The translations under genes and the position numbers were made by a program. From a virus (Duplodnaviria; Caudoviricetes): DNA of 64,000 bases. The stretch's first letter is position 1, and the number at the start of each line of letters is the position of its first letter. The notes under the pieces are model-generated. The model ran no database searches and was not told the DNA's origin. It saw nothing but the letters and a program-made list of their open reading frames with translations. The DNA lies in the IMG/VR virus record IMGVR_UViG_3300025600_000018, positions 7,629 to 71,628 of that record. The stretch is one strand, 5' to 3'. Shown piece by piece: positions 32,367 to 60,998 of this stretch.

Positions 32367-32669
32367 TTAATTATCACCAGCTTCTTGTCTTTCTGATTTC
32401 AAAATATCTATGACCTCATTAAGTTTTAATAATACTTCTTTGCTGCATTTAATATCAAAACCTTCTTTAATGAGATTTATTAAATCCTGTACCATTTCTT
32501 CTGGTTGCTCAGTAGTATCATATTTTTGAAAACATACCTTGTTACCGTCTATAAACAATTCAAACGGATCACCATCATGAATCCTCATTGTTCTACGAAT
32601 TTCTTTTGGAATAACTACCCTACCTAAATCATCTATTCTTCTAATAATACCAGTTGCTCTCATAATCAT
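32367..32669 (-). CDS. abrB: AbrB/SpoVT-family transcriptional regulator
   Basis: MRATGIIRRIDDLGRVVIPKEIRRTMRIHDGDPFELF. Confidence 0.85.
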   Translation of the reverse strand: MIMRATGIIRRIDDLGRVVIPKEIRRTMRIHDGDPFELFIDGNKVCFQKYDTTEQPEEMVQDLINLIKEGFDIKCSKEVLLKLNEVIDILKSERQEAGDN

Positions 32670-33027: not shown

Positions 33028-33056
33028 ATTATACTATATTTTATTTTACTTGTCAA
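33028..33056 (-). promoter_or_regulatory. Consensus sigmaA promoter
   Basis: TTGACA-17-TATAAT. Confidence 0.8.
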
Positions 33057-33079: not shown

Positions 33080-33340
33080 TTAATTGTTTAGTGTGTTGAT
33101 TGACCTTAGATATTTGTCACAAAATTGTTGTGCTGCTTGGCGTGATATATTTAAACTTTCTCCAATTATCTTAAATGTTAATTTATTATTGCTTTGTCTT
33201 AGGTTATATATTTCCTTTCCATGTTCATTGTTGTAGGCTCTACCGCCATTGTTAAGACGGTAGCCTATCTTTGTGTATTCAGGTCTATAAGTGTTGCTCC
33301 ATGCCTTATTACGACCTGCGTTAGGTGTGTTATTGTTCAT
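33080..33340 (-). CDS. Small HTH protein (sigma70 region 4-like)
   Basis: LTFKIIGESLNISRQAAQQ. Confidence 0.55.
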   Translation of the reverse strand: MNNNTPNAGRNKAWSNTYRPEYTKIGYRLNNGGRAYNNEHGKEIYNLRQSNNKLTFKIIGESLNISRQAAQQFCDKYLRSINTLNN

Positions 33341-33343
33341 CTG

Positions 33344-34951
33344 TTATGCTCCAATCATTAATAAACTTGCTGTGTTGACTATATAATAATCCTTATTGTT
33401 CATTACCTTGTTATAGTTTTCCTCACCTTGAAATTCATCAATTACACTTTTTTCTTCAATATCCATATCTTTATATTTCTTTTTACCGTATGCAGGTGGC
33501 AACCATCCTTTTTTGGTGCTTCCAAAAATATTGAATCTATCAAGTAAATCCATGTTTAAAAACTCCAAATGGCATGTGCCTTTTTTGAAAAAAGTTGCTC
33601 TAAAGAACTTTAATTCAATTTTTGCAGAAATATTATCTTTTTTCGCTTGTTTTAATATTTCTCTTATATCAACATTTTCTGTTACTCCACCGTCAAGATA
33701 ATTAAAAACCTTTTCAACATCTTCAAGTTTATTAATAGTTTTATAATCAAAATCAAGGCTTTTACTCCATGAATCAAAACCAGCAAGTGGTATGATCACT
33801 TTCTTATTAATTTTCCAGCCCTTATTAGTTTTCCAGCCATTAAAATAATGAATATTTTTTGACGTTTCATCATACCAGTTATGCTTGTGAGAAAATTCAT
33901 CAAATAAACTTAGAATAGTATCATCTACACCCCTTGTTACTTTACTCATCATTTCGACTTGGACTGACTGAATGTTATACAATGAAAAATCATAATCAAC
34001 TAATTTATTAACTCTGTTATGGTATTCCTCTCTTAAATTTGATGTAAGCATATTCATAAAATCTGGATTATTAAATAATGCCGACCAGTATTTACGCCTT
34101 ACCATTTTAACATAATCATTAATCCTTAAATGATCTCTGTTATTATGTTCTACGTCAACAACTAAACTTAAAATTGGATTACTATTCTTTTCTTTAAGAT
34201 TTTTCAAGATAAACGGTTGCATTGCTTCATATTCTTCAATGAGTCCAATACCAGCTTCAATTTCTAATTTATATTGATCTATTATATTAGTAACAAAATC
34301 TTTTTTAATGATACCTGTTATGCTTTCTGTTATACGTTCTTGCTCGTGTTTTTCTCTTAAACCTGTTAAGATATAACTTTCATTTTGTTGTGCTGGAATA
34401 TCAATTTTAATTAATGCAATTTCTACTCCTGTTTTTCGTTCTGCTACTATAAAAGCATCTGATATATATTCAATAGTTGCATTGAGTTCTTCAAGTTTAC
34501 GCACTAAATCCTTTCTGTTATTGCTATATGGATTCTTTAAGGTTTCTGCATTTAGTAAACATACAATCTTACCGCCATGTTGTTGCATCTCAATTGCTTT
34601 TGCAAGATGTAAATTTCCATTTAAAAATGGCGGGTTCATAATAATTAGAGAATATCTTTTGTATGTATCATACTTTAAAAAGTCATCAGATACAAGTCTA
34701 TATTCTTTGCCTTTAAGAATGTGTTGTAAATTGGTGTCAATTTCAATTGTATCAATGTCATAATCAGAGTTCTTACTGTTATAGCCGTATCTGCGTTCAT
34801 TTTTAAATTTATTACGAATAGCATCTATTAAGTCCCCTTTACCAGCACTTGGTTCTAAGACGGAAGTAATAAACATAAAATCAATACCGCTTAACATCTT
34901 ATGAATTAGATTTGCAGGTGTTGGATAAAATTCTTCAATATCATTTAACAT
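33344..34951 (-). CDS. DUF4942-domain class I SAM-dependent (N6-adenine-type) DNA methyltransferase
   Basis: EFYPTP, VLEPSAGKG, IIMNPPF; C-terminal FFKKGTCHLEF typical of DUF4942. Confidence 0.85.
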   Translation of the reverse strand: MLNDIEEFYPTPANLIHKMLSGIDFMFITSVLEPSAGKGDLIDAIRNKFKNERRYGYNSKNSDYDIDTIEIDTNLQHILKGKEYRLVSDDFLKYDTYKRYSLIIMNPPFLNGNLHLAKAIEMQQHGGKIVCLLNAETLKNPYSNNRKDLVRKLEELNATIEYISDAFIVAERKTGVEIALIKIDIPAQQNESYILTGLREKHEQERITESITGIIKKDFVTNIIDQYKLEIEAGIGLIEEYEAMQPFILKNLKEKNSNPILSLVVDVEHNNRDHLRINDYVKMVRRKYWSALFNNPDFMNMLTSNLREEYHNRVNKLVDYDFSLYNIQSVQVEMMSKVTRGVDDTILSLFDEFSHKHNWYDETSKNIHYFNGWKTNKGWKINKKVIIPLAGFDSWSKSLDFDYKTINKLEDVEKVFNYLDGGVTENVDIREILKQAKKDNISAKIELKFFRATFFKKGTCHLEFLNMDLLDRFNIFGSTKKGWLPPAYGKKKYKDMDIEEKSVIDEFQGEENYNKVMNNKDYYIVNTASLLMIGA

Positions 34952-35164
34952 ATAAATACACCTCTGTTATTGTTTTTGCTTGATATGGATGTTATCAATT
35001 CTCTTTGTGCTTCTTGCATCGTATCAGAAGAGAAAAGAAATACTCCATTTAATATAACTTCAATATGCTCCATGACTTGTTTATATATTATATTATTTGC
35101 CATTATTGTTATCCTCCTGTTATTATATTTTAACTGTTTTATTGTGCTTGAAATTAAAGTTTTG

Positions 35165-35668
35165 TTATAAGTTGACTCTGTCTATTTCATTTTTTAATAA
35201 AAACATAAAGGTGTAAAATTTATAGTCATTTGTTATACTCAATATAAAGTATTTTTTATTATCCTCATAACGGCTTTTGATTTTATAATAATCTGGAAAA
35301 CCCTGATAATAAAAACTATCATCTCTACTTAAAAATAAACCATCTTGTATTAAAATTAAATCTTTATCATTAATTATTGCCATCTCATAACCATAAAAAT
35401 TTTCTCTAAATACCATTTTGCAGCCCTTATAATTCATAAATATAACTGGATTTGTTATGCTTTTACTCGTATGCTCTCCAATAACTGAATGATGCTCATT
35501 AACAAAATCATAATACTTTTCATAATCTTCCTCTTGATTGTTATAAAATAAAGGCAATATTGTATCTCTCCAAAAAATAATATTATCCCAAAATGCCTTT
35601 TCATAATACATTTCTTTCTTTGGTATATTTGCCATTGCCCAATTTTGCAAATTCAATTCCTTGCTCAT
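35165..35668 (-). CDS. Hypothetical early protein
   Basis: 167-aa ORF. Confidence 0.55.
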   Translation of the reverse strand: MSKELNLQNWAMANIPKKEMYYEKAFWDNIIFWRDTILPLFYNNQEEDYEKYYDFVNEHHSVIGEHTSKSITNPVIFMNYKGCKMVFRENFYGYEMAIINDKDLILIQDGLFLSRDDSFYYQGFPDYYKIKSRYEDNKKYFILSITNDYKFYTFMFLLKNEIDRVNL

Positions 35669-35672
35669 ACTC

Positions 35673-35996
35673 TTAACCCCTTCTGTTATAGTTATTATTG
35701 ATTTGTTGCATATTCATGATATAATACAAATTTCTACTTATCTCATATTCTGCATCACTTTCCGTCACTTCTGGTAGTGCTTCTGTTATCGTTTCCAGTT
35801 CAGTATGTTCACCAGCGTTATACTTTCTGTGTATGCCATTCCATTTTTGAATGTGCAAATAAGTACCTGAAACATCTTGTGTTATACATATTGGAGTGAT
35901 TTTATCATAGTTTGTATATATTGTCGTAGACTCTGGATCTTCCTCGTCACATATAGAAATTAAATTATATTGCTTAACTGCTGCTTGTATTGTCAT
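35673..35996 (-). CDS. Hypothetical early protein
   Basis: Likely start MTIQ at 35996 after GGTAGG-TATAACAC. Confidence 0.5.
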   Translation of the reverse strand: MTIQAAVKQYNLISICDEEDPESTTIYTNYDKITPICITQDVSGTYLHIQKWNGIHRKYNAGEHTELETITEALPEVTESDAEYEISRNLYYIMNMQQINNNYNRRG

Positions 35997-36220
35997 CGTG
36001 TTATACCTACCCTTCTCAATATTTAAACTTAACTCCACAATAATTAAAATACCTATCATTTATATGTTCTTTAAGTTTTTCTTCTAATTCTTCACGTTCT
36101 ATTTGTGTTAATGGTTTTGGTTTATCCGCTTTTGATACATAATCTTTTTTGTTTCTATTCCTCTTCAATTAAATCATCCTTTCTATTATGCTTTAATTAT
36201 GGTTAAATCTGCTGTTTTAA

Positions 36221-36523
36221 TCAATTATTAATTCTCCATAGCAAATGATTCTCAACCAATTCTTTACCTCCTAAATCAGAACAATCTATTATATTAAGTT
36301 TAACCTGCTCTAAATAATATTTATCGTTCATCTTTTCAGTATAATTATAAAACTCAAAAGGTTTATTTCCATTTTTATTTCTACTTTCTGAATGATATAA
36401 CCATGCTTTTAATTGTAGTTTAGTTGTTAAACAACATCCATTATAATCATTATTAAAAATTTTTCTAACTTCTTCAATCGTTGTTAAACCGTTATCTGTT
36501 ATACTCTTATTCAAGATTTTCAC
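36221..36523 (-). CDS. Hypothetical early protein
   Basis: 100-aa ORF. Confidence 0.5.
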   Translation of the reverse strand: MKILNKSITDNGLTTIEEVRKIFNNDYNGCCLTTKLQLKAWLYHSESRNKNGNKPFEFYNYTEKMNDKYYLEQVKLNIIDCSDLGGKELVENHLLWRINN

Positions 36524-36556
36524 CCTTTCTGTTATATCAAAATCGCTGTTTTGTTA

Positions 36557-36869
36557 TCATTGGACTAATTGAATATCATCTCTAATTTTATTTAATTGCT
36601 CTATTATTCCATCTTGATTCTTACAAATAATCCTTGTTCCTTCTGCTTTTATATTATTTAATTCTCTAAAAGAAATAGAAAAACTTTCAGGACACCGATA
36701 TCCACTAGTAACGCTAATCCAATATTTTTTATTTAATGCTTTGCTTATAGCTACAATATTCATAGGATCAAATAAACTGGGTATTCCTGCTTGATTAAAT
36801 TCATCGAATCCTACATCAAATAGTCTTTTTCTAATTTTTAAGTATTTACCGTCATAGTTTTCCGCCATG
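36557..36869 (-). CDS. Hypothetical early protein
   Basis: Likely start MAEN at 36869 after GAGG-TATAACAGC. Confidence 0.5.
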
Positions 36870-36885
36870 CTGTTATACCTCACTT

Positions 36886-36910
36886 TTATTATTTTAGTTG
36901 TGTTATACTA
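36886..36910. repeat. 25-bp intergenic repeat, copy 1
   Basis: TTATTATTTTAGTTGTGTTATACTA, identical at 39488-39512; variant at 41379-41399. Confidence 0.8.
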
Positions 36911-37405
36911 AAATGCCACATCTACTCTATTATCATAAACTGGATTATACATTTTTAATAGTTCAACTATATCATCATGTTTTTCTTTGATCTCTGCAAT
37001 TGCATTTACAATATCTATTGGTACTTCATATACTCTTGATAAATCTTGTAAATAATCTGATCTGTTATTGAATCCCATATCTAAATACTTTTTAACTTTT
37101 AGATAATCTTCTTCAAAAGGAATGGAATTAAAACGATCAACTAATGACTTATAACGATCTGATTCTATACATTCAATAGCTTTTGGAATTAGTCTATCAA
37201 GTTCGGCAGATATATAGCTTTTAAACTCATCCATTATCTTTGTACCTGTTGTTAGTTCTGTTATGTTATAGTTTCTTCCCATTTTGCGTATACCCAATTT
37301 TAACTCTGGATAATCAGCTAAGATAAATTCATTTCCTGTCACTTGCTGCTTAAACTCTTTCCAAGCTACACAATACTCAATTTCTTTCCCTATAATATAC
37401 TTCAT
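36908..37405 (-). CDS. Hypothetical early protein
   Basis: Likely start MKYII at 37405 after GAGG-TATAACACA. Confidence 0.5.
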   Translation of the reverse strand: MKYIIGKEIEYCVAWKEFKQQVTGNEFILADYPELKLGIRKMGRNYNITELTTGTKIMDEFKSYISAELDRLIPKAIECIESDRYKSLVDRFNSIPFEEDYLKVKKYLDMGFNNRSDYLQDLSRVYEVPIDIVNAIAEIKEKHDDIVELLKMYNPVYDNRVDVAF

Positions 37406-37471
37406 TGTGTTATACCTCAATCTTATATTTTATTTGTGTTGGTTCAAAATTGCTCTTTTATGCACTGTTCG

Positions 37472-37666
37472 TTATGCCCTACACTCTTTAAATTTTATAC
37501 TTAAAATTTTATAACCACACCTATCTGCTTCTTCATACATAATTTCTATTGCTTGTTTTTTACTTTTTGCCCAAGCACCACAAATTGTATTATAATCCTT
37601 ATCACTAAAATCAAAGTGAGCCTCAAAACTATATAATTTATCTTTTGTCATTGTCATTTTACGCAC
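37472..37666 (-). CDS. Hypothetical early protein
   Basis: 64-aa ORF. Confidence 0.45.
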   Translation of the reverse strand: MRKMTMTKDKLYSFEAHFDFSDKDYNTICGAWAKSKKQAIEIMYEEADRCGYKILSIKFKECRA

Positions 37667-38484
37667 TACCTTTCAAATTATTATTTTGTTATAAGTCTGT
37701 TATTTCTTTTAATATACTTTTATTAATTAAATTAACAAGGTAACACTGAAACGGGATAGTTAATTTAGATAAATCATAATTTTTTAACATTTCCTCGTAC
37801 ATCTTTCTTACTTTATTTTCTGTTATAATTTTATCAGGGTATTGATAATGTATAAATTTACGCATTTATAAAACCACCCATTCTTATTAATATTTTAAGT
37901 TCCACCAAGCCTGCTATCGTATCAAGATTTTCCATTTGTATTTTCATATCCTCAGTGTTATCGCTCCCGGCTTTGCAGATTGCATAATTCAACTGTTATA
38001 CCCCACTGTTAATCTGTTATTCAACACTGTCTATATTTTGTAAATAATGTTGTAAAGTTTTTTGAACCCTGCTAAATGCTTCAATTTGTATTCTACCTTC
38101 TTTTGTTTTCTTACACAAAAATTCATAATTGTGTGCTATTTCTATAGCAAATTCAAGTGTATTTTTGTCAAGATTCAATGCTGCAATTGACATTTAAATC
38201 ATTTCCTTTCTTAATAAAATCACCGTTTCGTATTAAGTGCTGCTGTTATAGATTAATCATCACAAAAACATAGCTCATTTGATTTATTACATTTAGGACA
38301 CCTATAGTCATCTAATTCATTTTTATTTAATTCTATACTTTCATTTTTTATTTTATCAACTAACTTTTGCATTTTTAATTTATGATCTTTATGTTTGCAA
38401 TAAATTTCCATTGTTATTACCTGCTTTCTACTTATTTTAATTGTTATAGCTATTTAGTTCAAAACCAATATTTCATGTACTCTG

Positions 38485-38739
38485 TTATAGGTTAAAGCTA
38501 TTACTTTTAAAATAATTTTCAATTGCATAAACTTTATCCCATGTTGATTCTTTTGCTCTGCCTCTGCCCTTTGATAACCATACTAATGTACTGCCTTTAA
38601 ATTCTCTGCCGTCTACAGTACCAAAAGAACGGATCATATCAATATTTCTGCGCCATATTAAATAATTACCTTCATCATCTATTATTTTAACTGTTTTGAA
38701 CTCTTGATTTAATATGACATTCATTATAAAACACTCCAT
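38485..38739 (-). CDS. Hypothetical early protein
   Basis: ORF downstream of the promoter at 38773-38801. Confidence 0.5.
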   Translation of the reverse strand: MECFIMNVILNQEFKTVKIIDDEGNYLIWRRNIDMIRSFGTVDGREFKGSTLVWLSKGRGRAKESTWDKVYAIENYFKSNSFNL

Positions 38740-38772
38740 TTGTATTAAATTTTTATCTCTTAATCTATTAAT

Positions 38773-38801
38773 AGTATATGCTTATATATTGCCCTTGTCA
38801 A
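38773..38801 (-). promoter_or_regulatory. sigmaA promoter
   Basis: TTGACA-17-TATACT. Confidence 0.75.
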
Positions 38802-38866
38802 TGCTTTTTATACCTATTTCTAAATATATTTTATATTAACTATCTACTTATGTATTTTAGCTTAAT

Positions 38867-39271
38867 TTATGATACTAAGCCAAAACTAATCCTTAATGCT
38901 CTATCAATATTCATAATAATTTCATCACCTAAATGCCCTATTTTTTGCTTGAGTCTGCTTTTATCAATTGTCCTGACTTGCTCCAATAGTACCACTGAAT
39001 CACTCTGTAAACCGTTTGTTACTGCATCTAGTAATATATGCGTAGGCAATTTTGCTTTGCTTATTTGGCTTGTTATGGCGGTTGCAATGACTGTCGGTGA
39101 ATACTTGTTCCCAATATCATTTTGAATTATTAATACTGGTCTTAAACCGCCTTGCTCTGATCCTGCATTACCTGATAAATCAGCAAAGTATATATCACCA
39201 CGCTTGATATTTTGTATCTGTGCTACTCGTATTGTGGGTTGTGCTGCTGTTAATGTATTTGTGTTAATCAT
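38867..39271 (-). CDS. mazF: MazF/PemK (EndoA/NdoA-type) endoribonuclease with no adjacent MazE
   Basis: [41 protein letters not shown]...[17 protein letters not shown]. Confidence 0.93.
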
Positions 39272-39383
39272 TTTGTTGTTATCCCCTTTTTATTTATTTT
39301 TTAATATCACCTCTTTACTTCCTTTTATTTTTAAGAGGTTGCTGGCGTTTATTTTCCTGTCATTCCTTCCGGCTTAAATTATA

Positions 39384-39473
39384 TTACTTACATTTTTTAC
39401 AACTTCTGATACTATCACAATGTTTTTTTGAAACTTTAACTTTTGCTCCGCAATTTGGACAAATTTTAATCAT
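39384..39473 (-). CDS. 29-aa Cys-rich micropeptide upstream of mazF
   Basis: GGAGG SD; MIKICPNCGAKVKVSKKHCDSIRSCKKCK. Confidence 0.5.
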   Translation of the reverse strand: MIKICPNCGAKVKVSKKHCDSIRSCKKCK

Positions 39474-39487
39474 TAAATTTACCTCCA

Positions 39488-39512
39488 TTATTATTTTAGT
39501 TGTGTTATACTA
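39488..39512. repeat. 25-bp intergenic repeat, copy 2
   Basis: Identical to 36886-36910. Confidence 0.8.
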
Positions 39513-40439
39513 TTGTGCTATTCCAAAAAGGTGGTTTATATCCTCTTCACTTGCTATATTTTCGCTTTGTTCTTCCTGCTCTGTGTTATACTTTTCTTTC
39601 AAAACATTATAAAGCTGTCTAATATAAGTAGATATAACCGTACTATCATTAAATTTCTTATATTTTGTGCTTTTATAAATTTGCCATTGTGGAGTATTAA
39701 ATTCTTCATTCATTAAGATACTATATAATGTTGTTCTGATCCATCCAATAGTTTTGATTGGAATTTGAATATCATTTCTTTTGAATAGCAGATATAAAGT
39801 ACATTCTTGATCATAATAACTTGTAACTTCAATAAATTCATTATTTGCCCTTTTATGGTTTAAAAAATCTGTTTCCGCTTGATTTAAAATAGCATTAAGT
39901 TTATCTGCTGCTATTTTTTGTTTTGCTTGTTCTTCTTCATCTCTTTGTTTGCGTTCTGCAATATCTTTTAATTTGCTTTTATCATAAAATATTTGCCTTG
40001 CTGTTATAAGCTGATTAATATATTGTTCTGATTCGCCTTGCTGTTTACACATTTCTATTTCATGCCGTCCAATAAATAAATTATTTTCAAGTTTTAATTC
40101 AATGGTATTTTTAAAGATAGTATAACTGATAGTTTTTGCAAGTGCTGTATATTCTGTTGTAAAATATTCATCGTCTATTAGTTCCTGATCTGCTCTTAAT
40201 TGATAGATATATGAAAAAATTCCATCATAATTACCATATAAATCTATATAATCTGAATAATCCATATTGGGTTTAATGTCGTTTGCATTGACAAATAATG
40301 ATCTAAAATTTTCATTGTTTGTTATGTCTGCAAGATTAATCAGATTTTGTGGATAATACATTGCTTTGTTATCATTCAGATAGATACATTTTTGACGTAT
40401 AATTGTATAACTGTCTTTGTTAATATCTTTTAATTGCAT
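39510..40439 (-). CDS. Hypothetical early protein
   Basis: Likely start MQLK at 40439 after AGGAGG-TTTAACA. Confidence 0.6.
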   Translation of the reverse strand: MQLKDINKDSYTIIRQKCIYLNDNKAMYYPQNLINLADITNNENFRSLFVNANDIKPNMDYSDYIDLYGNYDGIFSYIYQLRADQELIDDEYFTTEYTALAKTISYTIFKNTIELKLENNLFIGRHEIEMCKQQGESEQYINQLITARQIFYDKSKLKDIAERKQRDEEEQAKQKIAADKLNAILNQAETDFLNHKRANNEFIEVTSYYDQECTLYLLFKRNDIQIPIKTIGWIRTTLYSILMNEEFNTPQWQIYKSTKYKKFNDSTVISTYIRQLYNVLKEKYNTEQEEQSENIASEEDINHLFGIAQ

Positions 40440-40494
40440 TGTTAAACCTCCTATAATTGACGGTTTAAGGATCACCGACAACCTTATTTTGATT

Positions 40495-40827
40495 TTATTG
40501 TAATTTTTGTATACCTTTTATATTTTTCATAATTTCAATAGCTTTTTTAAATCTTTCAGCTTGATAATTATTATTTTTATCAATATAATTTTGCATATCT
40601 TTAATTGTTTTTTGTCCATATCCAATAGCTGCTAAAATTGTTTGAGCTTCTTTGACTTCTAATGCTTTTAAAGTTGATATATTAACTTGACATCCATTAT
40701 AACCGCCAACCTGACACAATGGCAAATATCCATCATTCATGTTTTTACCTATATTCCAAATAGTATAACCGTATGGAATTTCTGTTACAACCTCAAAAAT
40801 ATGTTCCCCTTTTATAATATTCTCCAT
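40495..40827 (-). CDS. Conserved hypothetical early protein
   Basis: IWNIGKNM...YLPLC motif; SD GAGGG-AATAACA. Confidence 0.55.
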   Translation of the reverse strand: MENIIKGEHIFEVVTEIPYGYTIWNIGKNMNDGYLPLCQVGGYNGCQVNISTLKALEVKEAQTILAAIGYGQKTIKDMQNYIDKNNNYQAERFKKAIEIMKNIKGIQKLQ

Positions 40828-40867
40828 TGTTATTCCCTCACCTTTTATTAATTTTTGATTATGGTTA

Positions 40868-40896
40868 ATTATATCATCTTATATTTTGTTTGTCAA
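40868..40896 (-). promoter_or_regulatory. Consensus sigmaA promoter
   Basis: TTGACA-17-TATAAT. Confidence 0.8.
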
Positions 40897-40953
40897 GTGT
40901 TTTGTTATAAACTTTTATATTATTTGTATTGTCTGTTGCTGTTATGGTTTTTA

Positions 40954-41358
40954 TTATACAATTTCATTAATATATTGAAATAGTTCTATACTTGCTCGAT
41001 CCGTTACTTTATTGTTATAGTTTATTTCTTCATTGATTAGCCATTGTTTAAGCATCTCAGCAATCCTCAGTTCATTATATTCTGTAATCGTAAAGCCGTT
41101 TGAAGGTGCAAAGAATAAGCAATCATGTATATTTTTATCGTTTGTTAATTCCCTACCATTAATAATTTCAATCCCAATTTCTCCACCATTATCCCATAAT
41201 TGATAAAACATATAATTGTATTTATTATAATTGAATGAATATTCACGCCTTAAAATTAATGTCTTGCCGTTATCTATTTCAGCAACCTTTTTTAAACTTA
41301 CTACTTCAAAACCAAATTCTAAAATTTTTGCTATGTTATTCAATTTTTCTGTTGTCAT
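40954..41358 (-). CDS. Hypothetical early protein
   Basis: Likely start MTTEK at 41358 after GAGGG-AATAACA. Confidence 0.55.
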   Translation of the reverse strand: MTTEKLNNIAKILEFGFEVVSLKKVAEIDNGKTLILRREYSFNYNKYNYMFYQLWDNGGEIGIEIINGRELTNDKNIHDCLFFAPSNGFTITEYNELRIAEMLKQWLINEEINYNNKVTDRASIELFQYINEIV

Positions 41359-41471
41359 TGTTATTCCCTCAGCTTTCATATTTTAGGTTGTGTTATACTC
41401 TGTATGCTATTATGTATTTGTAACGGCTTTTTGATCTTGCAGAAGCTTTAAACTGCTTGTGTTATACTGTT

Positions 41472-42137
41472 TTAGTTAGACATCATATTATATATTGCTT
41501 GTGTTTCATATCTCAAAATTCCCTTGCCGTCTGCTGTTAAGCCGTCCCACATTGCACCCAATAAACCTTTTAATTTTGGTGACTCTTCCATTTCTTTTCT
41601 CACGCTTTGACTTGTTGAATATCCCATGATCTCATAATTTTGTTGTAATTCTTCCAAGCTGTTATATATTTCATTTTTGCCAAGTTCTTTAACAACTTTA
41701 TATACAATTTTTTTGACTGCATCATCATCTGGATCAATTAATACAATTGGTTTTATCTCTGTTTGTGCAATAACATCTTTAAAATATCTTTTATCAAAAC
41801 AACTGTAACGGCTTTCCCTCATTATCATACCATTTTTTTCAACTGGTGCTGTGTATGAATTATCCTCCAAGTCAATCCAACCTTTATATATTGCCATTTC
41901 TGTATTCGGTAAAATTCTTGTACCACTTTTGGATCTCTTGCCTTTTGATACAAAGTATATTACAATACTAAAATCATACTGTGCGTAACTGCTTGTTATC
42001 ATACTAGTAAATTTTGCTTGCCTCACATAAGGAAAACCAAATTCGCTTATACCTGTTATTGTTATTTTATCCCCATCTTGTAAAATGTTTATTGCCTCTG
42101 CTGCTCTTTGTAATCTGCTTGTAGATGTATTTGTCAT
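41472..42137 (-). CDS. Hypothetical early protein
   Basis: Likely start MTNT at 42137 after GGAG-TAATAACA. Confidence 0.55.
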   Translation of the reverse strand: MTNTSTSRLQRAAEAINILQDGDKITITGISEFGFPYVRQAKFTSMITSSYAQYDFSIVIYFVSKGKRSKSGTRILPNTEMAIYKGWIDLEDNSYTAPVEKNGMIMRESRYSCFDKRYFKDVIAQTEIKPIVLIDPDDDAVKKIVYKVVKELGKNEIYNSLEELQQNYEIMGYSTSQSVRKEMEESPKLKGLLGAMWDGLTADGKGILRYETQAIYNMMSN

Positions 42138-42227
42138 TGTTATTACTCCATTCATATTTTATTATTTTAGCTATTAATCTTATATATTGCTTTTTTATTG
42201 GAAGCATAACCAACAACTGTTATTGAT

Positions 42228-42539
42228 TTATATTACCGTTACACCTCCATATGTTACTACGCTATTCCCTAACATTCCTATTGTATCACCTTTAACTGTC
42301 ATCTCTTGTAAACATGCATTAAGCTGTTCTGGTGTCAATGTAAGTGGTAATGCTCCAAAACTTAAATGATAAAAATAGCATCCTTTAAAATTCATTTTGC
42401 CTTTGCCTGTTGTTTTGTCAAAAATTCCTGTTTTGTTATCAGATTGAATAATAAATTGATTTTTTCCGTTAACATCCATTACTAAAAAATCTTGTTCCTT
42501 CCTCATTTTACCTAATTTTAAAAATACATAGTTTCCCAT
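42228..42539 (-). CDS. Hypothetical early protein
   Basis: 103-aa ORF with GGAG SD. Confidence 0.5.
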   Translation of the reverse strand: MGNYVFLKLGKMRKEQDFLVMDVNGKNQFIIQSDNKTGIFDKTTGKGKMNFKGCYFYHLSFGALPLTLTPEQLNACLQEMTVKGDTIGMLGNSVVTYGGVTVI

Positions 42540-42580
42540 TTTAAAAACTCCATTCTTATATTAATTTTATATTGTTGTTA

Positions 42581-43051
42581 TTATCTGATATATAATCCAA
42601 TTCCCTTAATATCTCCAAATTGAAAAGCTGTTAAAGGTTCAATAGAAAATTCGTCTTGATCTGGTTCTGGTTCTTCATCCCATTTTATATATACATTATT
42701 ATCTTCAATTTTTACAATTGATCCATAAGAATAAGGAAACATTGCACCCCAGTAACCTATAATTTTTGATCCAATTTCTGTTTTATTATCTGGTAAAACT
42801 GTTTTTTGAGATAACATATTTAATAATTTTTGTTTATGCTCTTGCAATTCTTCTAATCTCTTTTTGATCTCATTACAACTATTAACTTTTAATTTGTTCG
42901 CCTGTCTACTGTTTCCAAGTTCTTTATTTTCTTCAATCTCCATTTTCAAAACTGTTATACTGTTTTTATACTCTATTGATTTTTTAGCAATTAATTTATT
43001 AGTTTCAATAATTGACTCGTTTACTCTTTTAACCATTTCATTTGATAACAT
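42581..43051 (-). CDS. Hypothetical early protein
   Basis: Coiled coil followed by an SH3-like GYWGAM...VYIKWD segment. Confidence 0.5.
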   Translation of the reverse strand: MLSNEMVKRVNESIIETNKLIAKKSIEYKNSITVLKMEIEENKELGNSRQANKLKVNSCNEIKKRLEELQEHKQKLLNMLSQKTVLPDNKTEIGSKIIGYWGAMFPYSYGSIVKIEDNNVYIKWDEEPEPDQDEFSIEPLTAFQFGDIKGIGLYIR

Positions 43052-43127
43052 TGTAAATTACCACGCTTTCAATTAATTTTATATTACTGTTATTGCCTTA
43101 TGTTTATTAGTATTTGCCATCTCTAAT

Positions 43128-43156
43128 ATTATATTCTCATTGGATGAATTTGTCAA
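43128..43156 (-). promoter_or_regulatory. Consensus sigmaA promoter
   Basis: TTGACA-17-TATAAT. Confidence 0.8.
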
Positions 43157-43210
43157 TACTTTTATTGATTTATTTTATATTAACTTTATTGTTATTGTTT
43201 TGCCGTTTTG

Positions 43211-43414
43211 TTATTGTTTATCTCTGTTTTGTTGCAATGTCTGAAGTGCTGTTGTTATGCCTCTGTTATGCTCTGCTGCGTGGCTGCTGTTGGTGTTATT
43301 GCTGTTAATGTTAACTATTAGGATGATAACGAGAATGAAGGGGATCACATATAATGCAGTGACTGTTATTGATAATATGCGATTGAATATTATTAGGGAT
43401 TTTGATTTTTTCAT
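43211..43414 (-). CDS. Small membrane-anchored/secreted peptide
   Basis: Basic N-terminus, hydrophobic stretch, polar tail. Confidence 0.45.
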   Translation of the reverse strand: MKKSKSLIIFNRILSITVTALYVIPFILVIILIVNINSNNTNSSHAAEHNRGITTALQTLQQNRDKQ

Positions 43415-43462
43415 AGTGTTTTACTTCCTTTTATATTTTATTTGTTTTGTGGTATCTGGTGT

Positions 43463-43660
43463 TTATTGGTGGGAAATTTGATACTCTTCAATATATTTTT
43501 GTGCATCCGCTTCAGTTCTGCAAAATTTACCTATACCACAATAATAATAATTTTCATTGTCAACACTGATTAATACTTGAGCATAAAAATTGTAAATATT
43601 ATCTACTGGAAAATGTAATTTTTCAATATTGAATTTTCTTTTTATATCAACTGTATTCAT
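43463..43660 (-). CDS. Hypothetical early protein
   Basis: YYYCGIGKFC motif. Confidence 0.5.
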   Translation of the reverse strand: MNTVDIKRKFNIEKLHFPVDNIYNFYAQVLISVDNENYYYCGIGKFCRTEADAQKYIEEYQISHQ

Positions 43661-43725
43661 TTATAAAACCATCTTTCTAATAATATTTTGTTGGTGTCTG
43701 GTGTCAAAATTGGCTTGCTGTTATG

Positions 43726-44019
43726 CTAATTATGAATATTCCATTTTTGAAGCCATGTATCAGATACAATAAAATGTTTTTTAATCTTGCAAATTGTAGC
43801 TTCTGTTAAGTCAATAATATCAAAATATTTTTGTGGTATAACGTGCTTTAATCCTAATTTTTCAAGTCTATTTTTACGCTTGTTATAATATCTATTATCT
43901 ATTGTTATACATCCGCAAAACTGATTTAAAAACGTTCCTATATAACATTTATGCCCGTATGCATCTGTTATTCCAATGTCATATATCGCTTTTATGCCGT
44001 CATCTTGAATTATTTTCAT
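43726..44019 (-). CDS. Hypothetical early protein
   Basis: SD GAGG-TAATAACAAA. Confidence 0.5.
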   Translation of the reverse strand: MKIIQDDGIKAIYDIGITDAYGHKCYIGTFLNQFCGCITIDNRYYNKRKNRLEKLGLKHVIPQKYFDIIDLTEATICKIKKHFIVSDTWLQKWNIHN

Positions 44020-44058
44020 TTTGTTATTACCTCACTTCTATATTATTATTTTATTTGT

Positions 44059-44469
44059 TTATGCTATTTTATCATAATTCCGGCTATCTCTTATAACCTT
44101 TACATTTTCCAGTGATTCAAAAGTGTAAATTGATTTTTCTCCATAGTAAACAGATGCTTTTATAAAATATGGTATTAGATTAACTTGTATTTTTTTACCT
44201 TGACTGTTATAGATATTTTCGATATCATTAAAGGATTCAATATAAATGGAGCATTGTGTATAATTATAAGCTGTTAATACTTCATGAATTGTTATATCCT
44301 TTTGAAGTTTAGGAAATATCATTGTATTAATTGTTGTCATCCTTGTATCAATTTTTTGTGTTATTGCTTCAATTATTTCAGTTGATGTAATATAATCTTT
44401 ATTAATATTTTGTAATAGGTTATTAGCTACAATTGTATCTATTTGTATTTTTGTTTGTTTCATTGTCAA
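44059..44469 (-). CDS. Hypothetical early protein
   Basis: 136-aa ORF. Confidence 0.5.
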   Translation of the reverse strand: MTMKQTKIQIDTIVANNLLQNINKDYITSTEIIEAITQKIDTRMTTINTMIFPKLQKDITIHEVLTAYNYTQCSIYIESFNDIENIYNSQGKKIQVNLIPYFIKASVYYGEKSIYTFESLENVKVIRDSRNYDKIA

Positions 44470-44563
44470 TCAATTCCATTTCATATAAATTTTAGTTTCT
44501 GTTATTGCAATTTTCACTTTGTGTTATGTCAATTCAACTTCAATGTATTTTATTTTGACTTTA

Positions 44564-44791
44564 TTAAATAAACTTAAATTTTGCAAATTGTCTATTATTA
44601 TTTACATAATTATTAAAATCTTTTACAGTGCCATTACCAAAATTAAAAGCCTTTTTGATTTTATCCTCAGTCCATTTTATTATTACATTATTGTATTTTT
44701 TGTCAGTTTCAATTGCTATTAATTTACTGTTATTCATTGATATCAATCCTTTACTGTTAGATATTTGTAATTGTTTAATACAGCTTGACAC
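44564..44791 (-). CDS. Hypothetical early protein
   Basis: Start uncertain (probably MNNSK ~44737). Confidence 0.4.
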   Translation of the reverse strand: MSSCIKQLQISNSKGLISMNNSKLIAIETDKKYNNVIIKWTEDKIKKAFNFGNGTVKDFNNYVNNNRQFAKFKFI

Positions 44792-44925
44792 ACTGTAAAT
44801 GCTTGATCCTTTGTTATGTTATACAAATCAGATACTATGTTTTGAGATACAGCTAAACAATTTTTATTTGCTATTGCCTTAACTGTATTATATTGTTTAG
44901 TTGTTATTGTTAATGATTTTTTCAT
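44743..44925 (-). CDS. Hypothetical early protein
   Basis: GGAGGTG SD. Confidence 0.5.
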   Translation of the reverse strand: MKKSLTITTKQYNTVKAIANKNCLAVSQNIVSDLYNITKDQAFTVCQAVLNNYKYLTVKD

Positions 44926-45025
44926 TTTTACACCTCCATTCCAGTCTGTTCAAAATAGCGTTTTTGTTATGAATTTGGAAGCATAACCTTTTTTGTTATT
45001 CTGTTATGCTTCCATTCTGTTATTG

Positions 45026-45481
45026 TTAATATTTGCTATAAGGGTCTATTTCTGAAAGTGATTCAAAGTCAATTAATATTTCATTGTCATATGGTTTATC
45101 TGTCCAGTCTGTTATTCTATAAGAGTCAATTAATCTATTTTCATCATAAGTAACAAATATTTGAATATCACCTTTTTCTTTTTCCCAAAAACTAAAACCG
45201 CATGAGTCACCTTGAATAATTGCAATGCATTCTTCTTGCTTTAACCATTCTTTTTTATTCAATTCATTGTATGGGAATATTAATGATTGTTGTCCGCATT
45301 GTGGTATTAATATTGCATAACTATCTTCATCGCAAACAAGCTCATTGTCTTTATCAGTATAAACAACTCCCCAACCATCTATAGTTGCTTGTCTATATGC
45401 TTCAGATTTTCTGTAAAGTTTCACGATAGGGACAGCAACTATATCAGTAACAAAATATCTGCATTCACATGTTTTTTTCAT
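45026..45481 (-). CDS. Hypothetical early protein
   Basis: 151-aa ORF. Confidence 0.5.
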   Translation of the reverse strand: MKKTCECRYFVTDIVAVPIVKLYRKSEAYRQATIDGWGVVYTDKDNELVCDEDSYAILIPQCGQQSLIFPYNELNKKEWLKQEECIAIIQGDSCGFSFWEKEKGDIQIFVTYDENRLIDSYRITDWTDKPYDNEILIDFESLSEIDPYSKY

Positions 45482-45893: not shown

Positions 45894-45922
45894 ATTATAT
45901 TTTATATTTAACTAATTATCAA
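45894..45922 (-). promoter_or_regulatory. sigmaA promoter starting the left arm
   Basis: TTGATA-17-TATAAT. Confidence 0.7.
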
Positions 45923-48219: not shown

Positions 48220-48475
48220 ACTCAAATAACAATTCCATAACTATACCCAACCCAATTTATACCCTGTCAAATCAATTCCCAAATACCAACACGATACACA
48301 ATCCAGAAAATCACATAACAAATAATACAAAATGTATAAGAATTATATATAACAAAAAGCAACCTAATAATATTGCAATTTGGAAAAGTAACTTAAATTG
48401 GTTGCATAATTAAATCAGATCAAAATCCAAATAACATCAAAATAAAAATAATTCCACAAAATCACAAAATAACAC

Positions 48476-48504
48476 TTGACAAATATTCCCACATCATATA
48501 TAAT
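48476..48504 (+). promoter_or_regulatory. Consensus sigmaA promoter starting the right arm
   Basis: TTGACA-17-TATAAT with A-rich UP element. Confidence 0.85.
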
Positions 48505-48798
48505 AAAAGTGTAAACAAGTAAAATAAATGAAACCCACAAAACAGAATCACAAATAGGAGGCGAAAATTATGTCAAATCTAAATGTAATTAATCAATAGC
48601 AAATTTATATAATCAATTCACACCCTTTCACAACTTAATACAACCATTTAATCTCTCAACCCTAACAACATACTCCTATACCATTACACAGCCTATAAAC
48701 ATATCGTATGAACCGCACACACATATCATAATGCAATTAGTACATAGATAATATAAATGTAATCAACAAATACACAAAATAATAGGAGGAATAAATAT

Positions 48799-49626
48799 AT
48801 GGATAAATTAACAGGTATTTATAAAATTATAAATAAGGAAAATCACAAAATATATATTGGAGAAAGTGAAGATATACCAAAACGATGGGTTGAGCATTTG
48901 ACAGATTTAGTATCCAATGAACATTGTAATAAAAAATTACAAAATGATTTTGATCAATATGGAATTAAAAATTTTAAATTTGAAGTTGTTGAATCTATTA
49001 TTTTAATAAATGAAGATAGCGAATTGAAATCAAATTTTAAATTAAAAATGACATTGCTTTGTAGAGAATTTGTTTATATTAACAAATACAACGCTATTAA
49101 AAATGGATATAATATAGTAAATTCTCTAAAGGATATAGTTGTAAATAATCATGATATTTATCAAAGAGATAAAATTGCTGATGATAAAATGAAAGACATG
49201 ATACATAATTTTCTTAAAGATAATCCAAACTTAATTAAAGAAGAAAATATTATTAAGTTGGAAAATGTTAATAAATCTTCACATAAAAATACAACAGATA
49301 ATAAAACTTTAACAGAAATTTATAAAGATTTTAAAGAAGATGGTATAATTTCTTATGTAATGTTAATAAATGATTTTAGGAAGATTCTTGGGAATAATAA
49401 TATAATATATTTTAAAGATCATTCTTGGTATCCAACTGATATATCATTAAATGATAATCTAATTATATTAGGAAAAGAGCAAAAAAACAATTATGGATTC
49501 AAATATAATCAGATAGTGGTTACAGAAAAAGGAATAGACTTTATTAAAAATATTTTCAAGGTTAAAATTGATACAAGTGTAGATTTCATAGAGATAGATA
49601 TAAACACCTTATCAGAATGTGAATAA
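48799..49626 (+). CDS. GIY-YIG domain protein with C-terminal KilAC/ANT-like domain
   Basis: GIYKIINKENHKIYIGES...RWVEH N-terminus; C-terminal QIVVTEKGIDFI antirepressor-like motif. Confidence 0.7.
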   Translation: MDKLTGIYKIINKENHKIYIGESEDIPKRWVEHLTDLVSNEHCNKKLQNDFDQYGIKNFKFEVVESIILINEDSELKSNFKLKMTLLCREFVYINKYNAIKNGYNIVNSLKDIVVNNHDIYQRDKIADDKMKDMIHNFLKDNPNLIKEENIIKLENVNKSSHKNTTDNKTLTEIYKDFKEDGIISYVMLINDFRKILGNNNIIYFKDHSWYPTDISLNDNLIILGKEQKNNYGFKYNQIVVTEKGIDFIKNIFKVKIDTSVDFIEIDINTLSECE

Positions 49627-49690
49627 AACAACAATAACAATAATATATAACATCAAATAAAAATAAATCCAAAATAATCTAATTACCCTA

Positions 49691-49719
49691 TTGACAACCA
49701 TGCAAATATCATATATACT
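49691..49719 (+). promoter_or_regulatory. sigmaA promoter for the Rep-like gene
   Basis: TTGACA-17-TATACT. Confidence 0.8.
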
Positions 49720-49801
49720 GTAATTGTAGTAAACACATAATATAAAAGAAATAACAATTATTAACACACAATATTACAAAAAAGGATGTGAAAACTAATA
49801 G

Positions 49802-50410
49802 ATGTCAAAGCAATCCAATTCACAGCAATACATAACAGTACCATTCATCTTAATAGAAAATAAAGAAGGACAAGCAAAAGTCAAACCCAATACAACATAT
49901 CTGTATATGATGCTCAAGACATATAACACAAAAACAAATATAGTATCAATAAGGCAAAAGGCATTACTCAAAAAACTTAAATGGAATGATAACAGAACAT
50001 TAAAGAAACATCTGCAAGAATTAAAGTCCATGCAGCTAATAGAATATGATTTCACAGAACTGCCAATACACTCTGATCTACAAATCAAGTTCACTCCCAC
50101 AGAAAGTTATTACAAAACACTTACAATACATATGATTAATAAAATACAAGAATCATGTACCATAAACATAGAGCAAACAATAAGACTGTTTATGTATTAT
50201 TATCTGAAAGTGAATAATGAGTGGGGGTATGCATGGGTATCATATGATGACATAAACCAATATGCCAGAATCAGAAAATCATATATCAAATCACTTAATG
50301 ATGAAATGCAGAAAAACAAATTAATAGAAATTGATTTAGGTGAATGGTATGAAAATGCATATGAGGATGTAATCAAGGAAAGAAACAAATACAACGTGAT
50401 ACTGGAATAA
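49802..50410 (+). CDS. Tandem winged-helix protein, putative replication initiator
   Basis: Two wHTH-like repeats (YLYMMLK...NRTLKKHLQELKSMQLIEY; RLFMYYYLK...KSLNDEMQKNKLIEI); iterons downstream. Confidence 0.55.
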   Translation: MSKQSNSQQYITVPFILIENKEGQAKVKPNTTYLYMMLKTYNTKTNIVSIRQKALLKKLKWNDNRTLKKHLQELKSMQLIEYDFTELPIHSDLQIKFTPTESYYKTLTIHMINKIQESCTINIEQTIRLFMYYYLKVNNEWGYAWVSYDDINQYARIRKSYIKSLNDEMQKNKLIEIDLGEWYENAYEDVIKERNKYNVILE

Positions 50411-50675
50411 ACCAAAACAACAAATATAATTATGCAACAACCAAAGAATGTGTAAGTGAATAAACCAAAGTGAATCCAAACCAAACATACAACCAACCAT
50501 AATGCAATCCAAACCAAAAGTGAAACAGCCAAAGCCAATGTGAATCCAATAACCAATGTATGTCCGCAACCACCGTTTCCCAGTCGTAATCCAAAGTCCA
50601 AAATTATGCAGCGCATAAATTATAATTAGTAATATATAGTTAGTAACGTATAGTTAGTATACTAGTTATATATAC

Positions 50676-50758
50676 AGTCCCATTTATGCAAGGTAAGTCT
50701 GCATTTTTGGGACTCAAAGGTTGCATAAATGGGACTCAATGTTTGCATTTTTGGGACT
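50676..50758. repeat. Iteron-like 16-bp repeats TTGCATWWWTGGGACT
   Basis: Inverted copy at 50676; direct copies at 50699, 50721, 50743 (22-bp period); preceded by AT-rich TAGTTA repeats. Confidence 0.85.
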
Positions 50759-50860
50759 ATTAGCAATAATGCGGTCTGAGAGGGTGTTTGGGAATTTAGA
50801 GGTTAAAATAGCACAAAACAAGCAAAATAAAAGTAATTAAAATTTAAGGAGAAATAAAAT

Positions 50861-51895
50861 ATGTTAATTAATATTGAGGATGTAAAAGTATCAGATAGAA
50901 TTAGAAAAGATTATGGGAATATTGATGAACTGGCACAGGATATTAAATCAAATGGTTTAATTAACCCTCCAGTAGTTACACCTGACTACCAACTTATTGC
51001 AGGTGAACGCAGACTCAGAGCTTTAAAGAGTTTAGATTATAAACAAATTGAAGTTAGAGTTATGACTGTCAAAGATGCACTTCATCAATTGAAACTTGAA
51101 ATTAGTGAGAATGAAAATCGTAAAGATTTTAGTTTTAATGAAAAGATGGCTTGGGCAAAGATGTTAGAAGAAGAATATAGAAAGATTGCAAAAGATAATT
51201 CTTTGAAGGGGATAACCAGTGGTTCAAATGACCCAGTGGTTGGAAGAGTAAGAGATAAAGTAGCTGAATCTGTAGGATTTAGTAGTGGAACTACATATGA
51301 TCGTGCAAAATACATATCAGATAATGCGAATGAAGAAACTATTAAGAAACTTGATGCTGGTGATTTAAGTATTAATAAAGCTTATCAAGATTTAAAACAA
51401 CAAAAACAATCTCTTGAACAACAATTGGAAACAGAAAGAAATAAATTACCTAAGACTATTGATAAGACTGATTATACTACAATTAATCAACTCAAGTCAG
51501 AAATAAATAGTAATAGTAGTAAAGTAAAAACTTTAGAAACAGAAGCAGAGTCATACCGTAAAAAATATATTAATACATTAGATCAACTTCAAATAGAGCA
51601 AGGAAAAGTATCTCAATTTATGGGAGAAAGTACACATTTTGAATTAGTATCCTCAACAAGTGAACTCACTTTAAAGATGATTAATTTTATTAGAGATATG
51701 TCAAAGTATGATTATCTTGCTGAAGTATTTAATGAGATACCAGACGCCACAAGGAAAGAATATGTAAGAAGTATTTATGGAATTTATAAATGGGCAAGGA
51801 ATATTCTTAATCAAGTAAAACATGATGATGTAATAGGTGTGAATCAAAATAATATAGAAATAATAAATTATACGGAGGAAAATATTAATGACTAA
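50861..51895 (+). CDS. ParB/Srx N-terminal domain protein with HTH and coiled coil
   Basis: IKSNGLINPPVV...LIAGERRLRAL...ISENENRKD. Confidence 0.85.
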   Translation: MLINIEDVKVSDRIRKDYGNIDELAQDIKSNGLINPPVVTPDYQLIAGERRLRALKSLDYKQIEVRVMTVKDALHQLKLEISENENRKDFSFNEKMAWAKMLEEEYRKIAKDNSLKGITSGSNDPVVGRVRDKVAESVGFSSGTTYDRAKYISDNANEETIKKLDAGDLSINKAYQDLKQQKQSLEQQLETERNKLPKTIDKTDYTTINQLKSEINSNSSKVKTLETEAESYRKKYINTLDQLQIEQGKVSQFMGESTHFELVSSTSELTLKMINFIRDMSKYDYLAEVFNEIPDATRKEYVRSIYGIYKWARNILNQVKHDDVIGVNQNNIEIINYTEENIND

Positions 51896-52481
51896 TGAAT
51901 TAGAAGTAAGAGTAAGCAAATTAGAAGGGGTTACAAATAAATTAGCTGGCTTAGCAAATAATTTACAGACTGGACAAATGACAATTGTCGAAGTAATACA
52001 GGAATTAGGTCTTTCTATTGGAACTGAAATTAGAGAAGTAGTTTCAATAGAGATAGAAGCAAAATCTAAGGAAATTGGTCAACAAACAATAATTCAAATA
52101 ACAGATGCAGAAAAAGATATAGAAGATATTAAAAATAGGTTAAAAGAAAAAGGATTAGATAGACATCAAGCTAATAAAATAACGCAAAAGATTGCATTAA
52201 GAACGCACAAATTAGTAGGTTCTAAAGATTCTATAAAATATATTTTGTTTTATGGTGCTTATAGAGGAAGAATTAACAAAGTATTAAGACAGCATTATGA
52301 TGTTCCATCTTATAAAGATATTGCTCCATATGAATTTGAAGAAGCTTTGAAGATGATTGATTTAATAACTCCAGAATCATGGTTTGACGATTTTATCATT
52401 ACAAAATGGAAAGAGAAAGATCAAGATGGCGAATTAAAACCTAAAGAACAAAAGGCTTTAAAAAAATATTTAGAAAATTAA
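51888..52481 (+). CDS. ORF6C-domain protein (antirepressor-like)
   Basis: VPSYKDIAPYEFEEALKMI ORF6C pattern. Confidence 0.7.
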   Translation: MTNELEVRVSKLEGVTNKLAGLANNLQTGQMTIVEVIQELGLSIGTEIREVVSIEIEAKSKEIGQQTIIQITDAEKDIEDIKNRLKEKGLDRHQANKITQKIALRTHKLVGSKDSIKYILFYGAYRGRINKVLRQHYDVPSYKDIAPYEFEEALKMIDLITPESWFDDFIITKWKEKDQDGELKPKEQKALKKYLEN

Positions 52482-52517
52482 AACAAGTAAAATAAAATAA
52501 TGGAATATTGAAATGAG

Positions 52518-53450: not shown

Positions 53451-53458
53451 TATTTAAT

Positions 53459-53689: not shown

Positions 53690-53740
53690 TTAGTGCAATT
53701 AGTATGACAACAACAAAATAAAAGATAGGAGAAATATAAA

Positions 53741-55660: not shown

Positions 55661-55676
55661 TAGGAGGATAACAACA

Positions 55677-60987: not shown

Positions 60988-60998
60988 AAGGAGTTATT

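Follow-up and report, generated by a model that had tools for sequence, protein, structure and literature searches.

The hexamer ATAACA fills one early-gene block and is purged from the same DNA strand elsewhere in a group of SPbeta-like phages

We analysed 64 kb (hereafter the window) of a 71.6-kb virus contig, IMG/VR record IMGVR_UViG_3300025600_000018 (G000), which has a G+C content of 27% and an SPbeta-like layout, with a left, early-gene arm on the minus strand and a right, late arm on the plus strand diverging from a gene-poor region at about 46–48.8 kb. The hexamer ATAACA is packed into one block of the early arm on the transcribed strand, and the word is purged from the remainder of that DNA strand, regardless of how the genes are oriented. 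The same oriented block recurs across a clade of related large, uncultured phages, together with a homologous methyltransferase gene and independently of the MazF toxin gene that lies within it in the window. We consider it probable that ATAACA is a direction-dependent signal of some kind that is read on DNA; all of the functional readings given below rest on sequence statistics. The signature is a clean one (a 6-fold excess in the block and a 4–5-fold purge of the same strand, seen in about 30 contigs and accompanied by built-in negative controls), and it implies that an undescribed strand-reading machine is at work in SPbeta-like phages. Polar DNA words (e.g., Chi, KOPS and cos) belong to the small set of sequence signals by which whole genomes are organised, and each of them led to a molecular machine.

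An oriented ATAACA block in the early arm

The features that define the pattern in the window are as follows.

33328–45115, minus strand: ATAACA block, with 91 sense-strand copies, the consensus H-ATAACA-R and about 28 small early open reading frames (ORFs)
1–33000, minus strand: rest of the early/replication arm, in which the sense strand is poor in ATAACA (8 copies over 40.6 kb of the contig, 32–37 being expected) and the opposite strand is neutral
48799–64000, plus strand: YonO (late) arm
55677–58415, plus strand: gene for a YonO-type single-chain RNA polymerase, with ATAACA in the spacer between its Shine–Dalgarno (SD) sequence and start codon
48226–49994, plus strand: small, mostly non-coding ATAACA cluster of 11 plus-strand copies at the head of the right arm
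44976–45014, no strand assigned: palindrome TGGAAGCATAAC...GTTATGCTTCCA, a predicted hairpin with a 12-bp stem and with ATAACA copies in arm and loop

Counted on the plus strand as TGTTAT, which is ATAACA on the transcribed strand, the word occurs 100 times in the window, and 91 of these copies lie inside 33,328–45,115, where mononucleotide composition predicts 14.3. An earlier note on this DNA, made by a model from the letters, had put the number at 70 or more between 33.3 and 45.1 kb and the compositional expectation at about one per kb; the observation holds, and the count exceeds what had been claimed. An equal length of the remaining left arm holds 2.3 copies, and the block itself holds four of the reverse complement. 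Only WTAACA is enriched (TTAACA more weakly, with 20 copies), and the remaining one-mismatch variants are not.

The excess persists after the codon and composition control that the note had proposed. Block ORFs contain 52 copies, compared with 19.3 ± 3.7 (maximum 30) in synonymous-codon shuffles and 12.3 ± 3.4 in codon-order shuffles, and these copies are confined to frames 0 and 1, the two that avoid an internal TAA. The 1.9 kb of non-coding DNA in the block holds the other 39 (21/kb, compared with 4.9/kb in coding DNA). Selection at the nucleotide level packs ATAACA into the block by way of synonymous sites and nearly all of the free non-coding bases.

Considering the placement of the word, 12 of the 28 block ORFs have it 0–5 nt 5' of the start codon (starts at 33340, 35103, 35996, 36868, 37405, 37992, 38411, 39271, 40827, 41358, 42137 and 44019), in keeping with the note's claim of at least 11 genes with the word between SD and start. 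This placement is peculiar to this genome: the SD–start spacer carries the word at 8/20 starts in the window, compared with 1/45, 1/13 and 10/466 in relatives. We read it as the densest block (7.4/kb, compared with about 2.7/kb in relatives) filling every free base. The spacing from copy to copy shows no clear helical periodicity. The half-site TGGAAGCATAACC of the palindrome at 44976–45014 comes again at 42199–42211.

Predicted promoters in and next to the block are the following.

45894–45922, minus strand: sigma-A-like promoter with an 11/12 match, at the head of the ATAACA block
43128–43156 and 40868–40896, minus strand: sigma-A-like promoters with perfect 12/12 matches, within the block
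33028–33056, minus strand: perfect-consensus promoter directly past the last motif copy, where the ATAACA-purged part of the arm begins

The same strand is purged on both arms

The word had been described as scarce in 0–33 kb, which understates an active depletion. In the rest of the left arm, ORFs hold 5 sense copies where synonymous shuffles give 19.3 ± 3.9, and ATAACA is the fourth most depleted of 966 frequent hexamers, behind restriction-type palindromes. On the YonO arm of the window, the template strand (scored as TGTTAT) has no copy where 5.3–8.7 are expected. The word had also been said to flip with transcription on this arm, and AGGAGGATAACAACATTG does stand at the YonO start, but sense ATAACA overall is only at expectation there (18 compared with 17). 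The genes reverse in the right arm, but the strand without the word is still the minus strand, so the strand bias is independent of gene direction, as expected of a polar word; its switch points are the divergent region and 33.0 kb. The small cluster at 48226–49994 lies in an A/C-rich, nearly G-free stretch, has no counterpart in the two block-bearing relatives described below (G005 and G006) and was seen in this genome only.

An asymmetric hexamer kept in a single orientation over long distances is known from phage T7, whose EcoP15I sites all lie on one strand, by which Type III restriction is evaded. This genome, unlike that of T7, contains ATAACA in both orientations, so that simple evasion cannot be concluded, and the enrichment in the block calls for a positive function.

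The pattern is conserved in relatives and absent from controls

Two IMG/VR contigs, G005 (180.8 kb, 85% complete) and G006 (a 62-kb fragment), were found through homologues of the DUF4942/Dam-like methyltransferase encoded in the block. G005 has a block at 56–77 kb with 57 copies and G006 one at 1–10 kb with 26 copies. Observed counts and expectations from synonymous shuffles are as follows.

Block ORFs: 23 compared with 8.6 in G005; 14 compared with 3.5 in G006
Early arm beyond the block: 12 compared with 36.4 ± 4.6 in G005; no value for G006
YonO-arm template strand: 3 compared with 16.4 ± 2.8 in G005; 1 compared with 19.9 ± 3.5 in G006
Other strand: neutral in both

ATAACA is the most depleted hexamer of all on the YonO-arm template strand (rank 1/866 in G005 and 1/833 in G006). 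Three further fragments, G001, G003 and G004 (YonO about 57% identical), are purged as well (4 compared with 17.3, 4 with 13.7 and 0 with 9.0), so that six contigs in all show the block-bearing strand cleared of ATAACA elsewhere, irrespective of gene direction. Neither G002 (YonO 46% identical) nor SPbeta has a block, a purge or a polar word. As G006 retains its block with a YonO that is merely 25–28% identical, the word tracks the methyltransferase module and not the polymerase.

A search of metagenomes with the methyltransferase alignment brought up 80 loci, and at least 22 further metagenome contigs carry the same oriented block, each centred on a homologous methyltransferase. Pooled over 22 block-bearing loci (306 kb), sense ATAACA was counted 719 times with 295 expected and antisense 140 times with 179 expected, while 17 loci from other methyltransferase clades at similar G+C (299 kb) were neutral (241/240 and 160/159). 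Density is highest at the methyltransferase gene (3–4/kb) and fades over about 8–10 kb on each side. Copies fall in hairpin loops at 20/58 in G005 (8.3 at random) and at 54/719 in the pooled loci (about 24 at random), the random positions not being matched for intergenic preference.

Some candidates for the same pattern were discarded. The terminal ATAACA clusters of G001 are a DnaA-box array (TGTGGATAACA) plus a tandem repeat and were rejected as a block. A triple-motif scan of IMG/VR was dominated by chance matches, and its candidates had no genes in common with the window. As an observation apart from ATAACA, G001 (L006/L007) has 5–6 DnaA-box-like TGTGGATAACA words at 31.5–34.6 kb, where its arms diverge, which suggests a DnaA-dependent origin there.

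A methyltransferase gene and a companion domain travel with the word

33344–34951, minus strand: predicted orphan gamma-class N6-adenine methyltransferase with a C-terminal DUF4942 domain, motif I EPSAGKG and motif IV NPPF
41472–42137, minus strand: 221-aa protein with a domain (residues 19–132) that has its homologue in a ~640-aa LPD29 'polyvalent' protein

The methyltransferase is the only well-conserved block gene in relatives. Its ORF holds 8 copies of ATAACA in the window where 2.0 are expected; homologous ORFs average 3.8 with 1.3 expected in 22 block-bearing loci, and 2.1 with 1.5 expected in 17 others. Judged by its motifs and its modelled fold, the protein is a gamma-class N6-adenine enzyme: motif I precedes motif IV, EPSAGKG and NPPF are invariant in 24 homologues, and in the model (mean predicted local distance difference test score, 78) the catalytic domain is matched by Foldseek to CamA, M.BseCI and M.TaqI (E ~1e-7), as well as to the rRNA adenine methyltransferases KsgA/Dim1/Erm. 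A sequence search of the protein against PDB found no relative. Block-bearing methyltransferases mostly form one clade.

ATAACA is a plausible target of this enzyme on the strength of their co-location, and also because CamA, the best structural match and likewise an orphan, recognises an asymmetric 6-mer. CamA of Clostridioides difficile is an N6-adenine methyltransferase whose target, CAAAAA, is methylated on one strand. Both enzymes are orphans and CamA is the closest match to the modelled catalytic domain, but the two lack homology at the sequence level and the C-terminal DUF4942 domain of the phage enzyme is unmatched. We regard the methyltransferase as the best candidate for a protein that would recognise, and possibly mark, ATAACA. 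This offers a candidate target for the widespread uncharacterised DUF4942 methyltransferases of the 'polyvalent' anti-defence modules of phages and plasmids; a literature search on ATAACA and DUF4942 found nothing relevant.

Besides the methyltransferase, only the domain of the 221-aa protein travels with the word, being present at 20/25 block-bearing (Z+) loci and at 0/31 others (Z-). In block-bearing relatives, the gene for the ~640-aa LPD29 protein lies directly upstream of the methyltransferase gene.

The block is independent of MazF

38867–39271, minus strand: EndoA-like MazF/PemK toxin gene (PF02452, E=6.8e-35)

The explanation put forward in the earlier note was that an antitoxin-less MazF cuts AUAACA and, in the manner of T4 RegB, serves as a timer by which early mRNAs are destroyed or rendered leaderless. 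In its favour, a mazF gene, confirmed by the PF02452 match, lies inside the block, and 12 genes have the word between SD and start codon; no antitoxin-like ORF (such as a MazE neighbour) adjoins mazF. There is some likeness to T4 RegB, which cuts GGAG in early SD sequences, and to the 'ACA-less mRNA' logic of MazF: early transcripts abound in a short word, which in this genome lies partly at ribosome-binding sites, and the later genes on that arm avoid it. However, MazF was found within 10 kb of the methyltransferase at 0/25 block-bearing loci; G005 has only distant MazF-like genes (34–40% identity), about 75 kb or more beyond its block, and none was found in the 62 kb of G006. The note had asked whether motif and mazF co-occur across related phages and had named persistence of the motif in relatives lacking mazF as the outcome that would undo the link; such relatives keep the oriented block, and the MazF link is thereby refuted.

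Other evidence points the same way. The protein is about 65% identical to the B. subtilis EndoA and B. anthracis MoxT structures over the whole fold (E=2e-44), with its conserved segments intact. The EndoA/MoxT subgroup cuts UACAU, and at this identity the window's enzyme is expected to do so too. UACAU is neither enriched nor depleted, having a similar density on both strands and in all three regions. The mazF ORF and its spacer themselves carry ATAACA, the spacer placement is not conserved, and the antisense purge of the late arm, which is also foreign to RegB, is left unexplained. We therefore regard cutting of ATAACA-tagged early mRNAs by MazF as barely credible, and a tempting toxin-based story could be excluded by comparative genomics alone.

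A few observations concern MazF itself. A 100-aa protein with an AbrB/SpoVT/MazE fold (32367–32669, minus strand; TIGR01439, phrog 'antitoxin') is encoded just outside the block, 6.2 kb downstream of MazF, and may be a regulator or a trans-acting antitoxin. The MazF-like ORFs of G005 lie at 151060–151410 and 155945–156199, one of them inside a 288-aa open frame. Oriented words near the MazF genes of big phages (ACACAGGT and relatives) were rejected as analogues of ATAACA, as they are tandem 15-bp coding repeats. Among IMG/VR loci with MazF homologues, L073, L078–L080 and L083 (e.g., L079:900–1270) have long in-ORF arrays of the 15-bp AACACAGGTRRCYRK, which encode a pentapeptide-repeat protein.

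A proposed one-way reader of DNA

A polar DNA signal, which the note had listed as an alternative, is the reading that the evidence favours. We infer that ATAACA is read on DNA: its purge follows one DNA strand across both arms, which points to a reader that travels along the genome one way only. Chi (RecBCD/AddAB) and KOPS/SRS (FtsK-orienting polar sequences and SpoIIIE recognition sequences) are alike in being short orientation-dependent words for a translocating machine, with a bias independent of gene direction; here, the polar arrows point apart at the ori/pac region and meet at the block's far edge. Unlike ATAACA, Chi and KOPS words are G-rich and spread over whole replichores, whereas the permissive orientation of ATAACA is not enriched outside a 12–20 kb block, within which it is 6-fold up, and the same strand is otherwise purged 4–5-fold.

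More specifically, we suggest as a tentative possibility that ATAACA marks a block beside the pac/ori divergence that is read by a one-way machine, most likely on the packaging/entry axis. With one strand kept ATAACA-free genome-wide, save for a single 12–20 kb early-gene block by the divergent ori/pac region, a one-way machine would meet no active-orientation copy before the block, and the many copies in the block could make it a zone where the machine is stopped, slowed down or made to cut. The likeliest machine would be the headful packaging motor. In SPbeta, packaging is headful and unidirectional from concatemers, and pac lies between yonR and yonP, i.e., in the divergent region. The Goe phage records share the orientation of SPBc2, so their reported pile-up 'to the left' of the opening point means, on our reading of the coverage, packaging into the late arm. 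By analogy, the motor would traverse the YonO arm first, enter the early arm at its far end and come to the block at the finish, with pac directly beyond. On this view the block, ~10% of the genome, would enter the head last and the cell first, forming a diffuse cos-like end zone, and a multi-copy stop or cut signal would account for the enrichment, the orientation and the purge.

There is partial precedent for such an arrangement. The lambda cosQ/cosN termination signal and the P1 pac site, with its seven Dam-methylated TGATCA/G hexamers, are met by the packaging enzyme in one direction. P1 also encodes an adenine methyltransferase of its own that governs cutting at the hexamer cluster, a partial parallel for the methyltransferase link. 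These are single sites of at most 160 bp, unlike the dozens of ATAACA copies spread over 12–20 kb, and we know of no genome-wide purge described for either. It is a somewhat doubtful extension of the packaging proposal that a hexamer banned from one strand, concentrated in the last-packaged ~10% and written or read by the methyltransferase module would constitute a diffuse, epigenetically controlled cos for a one-way motor.

Several points weigh against these proposals. The position of pac and the direction of packaging are taken from SPbeta by analogy, the direction also from a reading of a figure description, and SPbeta itself is without such a word. The reader protein is hypothetical. To our knowledge, headful packaging does not use sequence-specific termination, and a cut gated by head filling would need no genome-wide purge. 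In G005, about 8–10 kb without the word separate the divergence from the block. The copies in hairpin loops fit a single-stranded reading better than a double-stranded DNA motor, although this argument is weak. The link to the methyltransferase is a correlation, and one that carries an ascertainment bias, as the relatives were found through that gene, and the other methyltransferase clades showed no convincing clade-specific word, so there is no covariation between target recognition domain and motif.

Alternative readers

A signal at the RNA level, with the AUAACA of early transcripts as the binding or cleavage site of some factor that is not MazF (e.g., a repressor, RNase or RNA methyltransferase), would leave the block mRNAs to fare differently from the AUAACA-free mRNAs downstream of the promoter at 33056. 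This would suit the presence of the word on the sense strand of the block and its avoidance on the sense strand of the remaining early arm, the copies in hairpin loops, the SD–start spacers of this genome and the resemblance of the methyltransferase catalytic domain to KsgA/Dim1/Erm. We nevertheless think it unlikely, as it does not explain why, in six contigs, depletion is strongest on the late arm's antisense (template) strand, with sense ATAACA neutral in late mRNAs; the spacer placement is not conserved, and no Rfam family was matched. The purge of the late operon's template strand, which is the strongest, would suit a barrier, in which 5'-ATAACA-3' on the template would stop or slow the pause-insensitive YonO, or a rolling-circle fork, and the block would be a terminator zone for a machine otherwise running round a circular or concatemeric genome. 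About 37 genes form a single operon for YonO, which is insensitive to pauses and has no flap for hairpin termination. This barrier is nonetheless quite improbable: the divergent YonO of G006 (25–28%) goes with the word and the closer YonO of G002 (46%) goes without it, the purge of the early arm would require functional antisense read-through, and nothing similar is found in SPbeta.

A Chi-like array is distinctly unlikely as well, though a little easier to accept. Here, the block would be injected first, and host AddAB/RecBCD would recognise 5'-TGTTAT-3' on the 3'-ended strand, with the effect that degradation would halt, fewer CRISPR spacers would be captured and circularisation would be helped. 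The word is polar, short and of a kind read as single-stranded DNA, the SPbeta-like packaging geometry would place the block first in and in the active orientation, and accumulation of Chi is known from temperate phages (PMC3784561). The genome-wide excess in the active orientation that characterises Chi is not seen, however, as the word fills one block and is purged elsewhere on that strand; protection gives no cause for such a purge, and the methyltransferase link goes unexplained. Among 400 genomes of Clostridia and 400 of Bacilli, a host search through the methyltransferase returned two matches, the examined one without an ATAACA block and the second on a contig of about 2.7 kb; no host was found among these 800 genomes.

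Other words and genes of the window and its relatives

Restriction-type palindromes are avoided in their own right. Contig-wide, GAATTC occurs 0 times with 13.3 expected and TGATCA 4 times with 16.9 expected, and G005 avoids AGATCT (0 compared with 18.9 expected), CTTAAG and AGTACT; this is classical restriction-site avoidance. ATGGAA was considered as an analogue of ATAACA and rejected, as its excess is sense-biased on both arms, as codon usage gives, and is present both in other methyltransferase-bearing loci and in the complete genomes G007 and G010, which have no methyltransferase. In another group of 130–155 kb phages (G007 and G010, L331–L345; L292, L301, L304, L306 and L314), it is 3–4× over-represented on the sense strand of both arms, with its highest density (about 2.8/kb) in the first 20–30 kb of the early arm. 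The excess looks codon-linked, which does not account for its early-region part.

The window had no match in a megablast search against a phage collection, and searches for Rfam families and tRNAs found none. The right arm (48.8–64 kb, plus strand) also codes for a ParB-like protein, a CoiA-like nuclease and a beta-CASP RNase, and the left arm (minus strand) for a DNA ligase, a C5 methyltransferase, an integrase-like protein, a DndB-like protein, a CCA-adding enzyme and RlaP. The CCA-adding enzyme adjoins the RlaP-type RNA-repair nucleotidyltransferase (24918–27261, minus strand), and together with the beta-CASP/RNase J-like nuclease (59566–60987, plus strand) they make up a phage set for RNA repair and processing.

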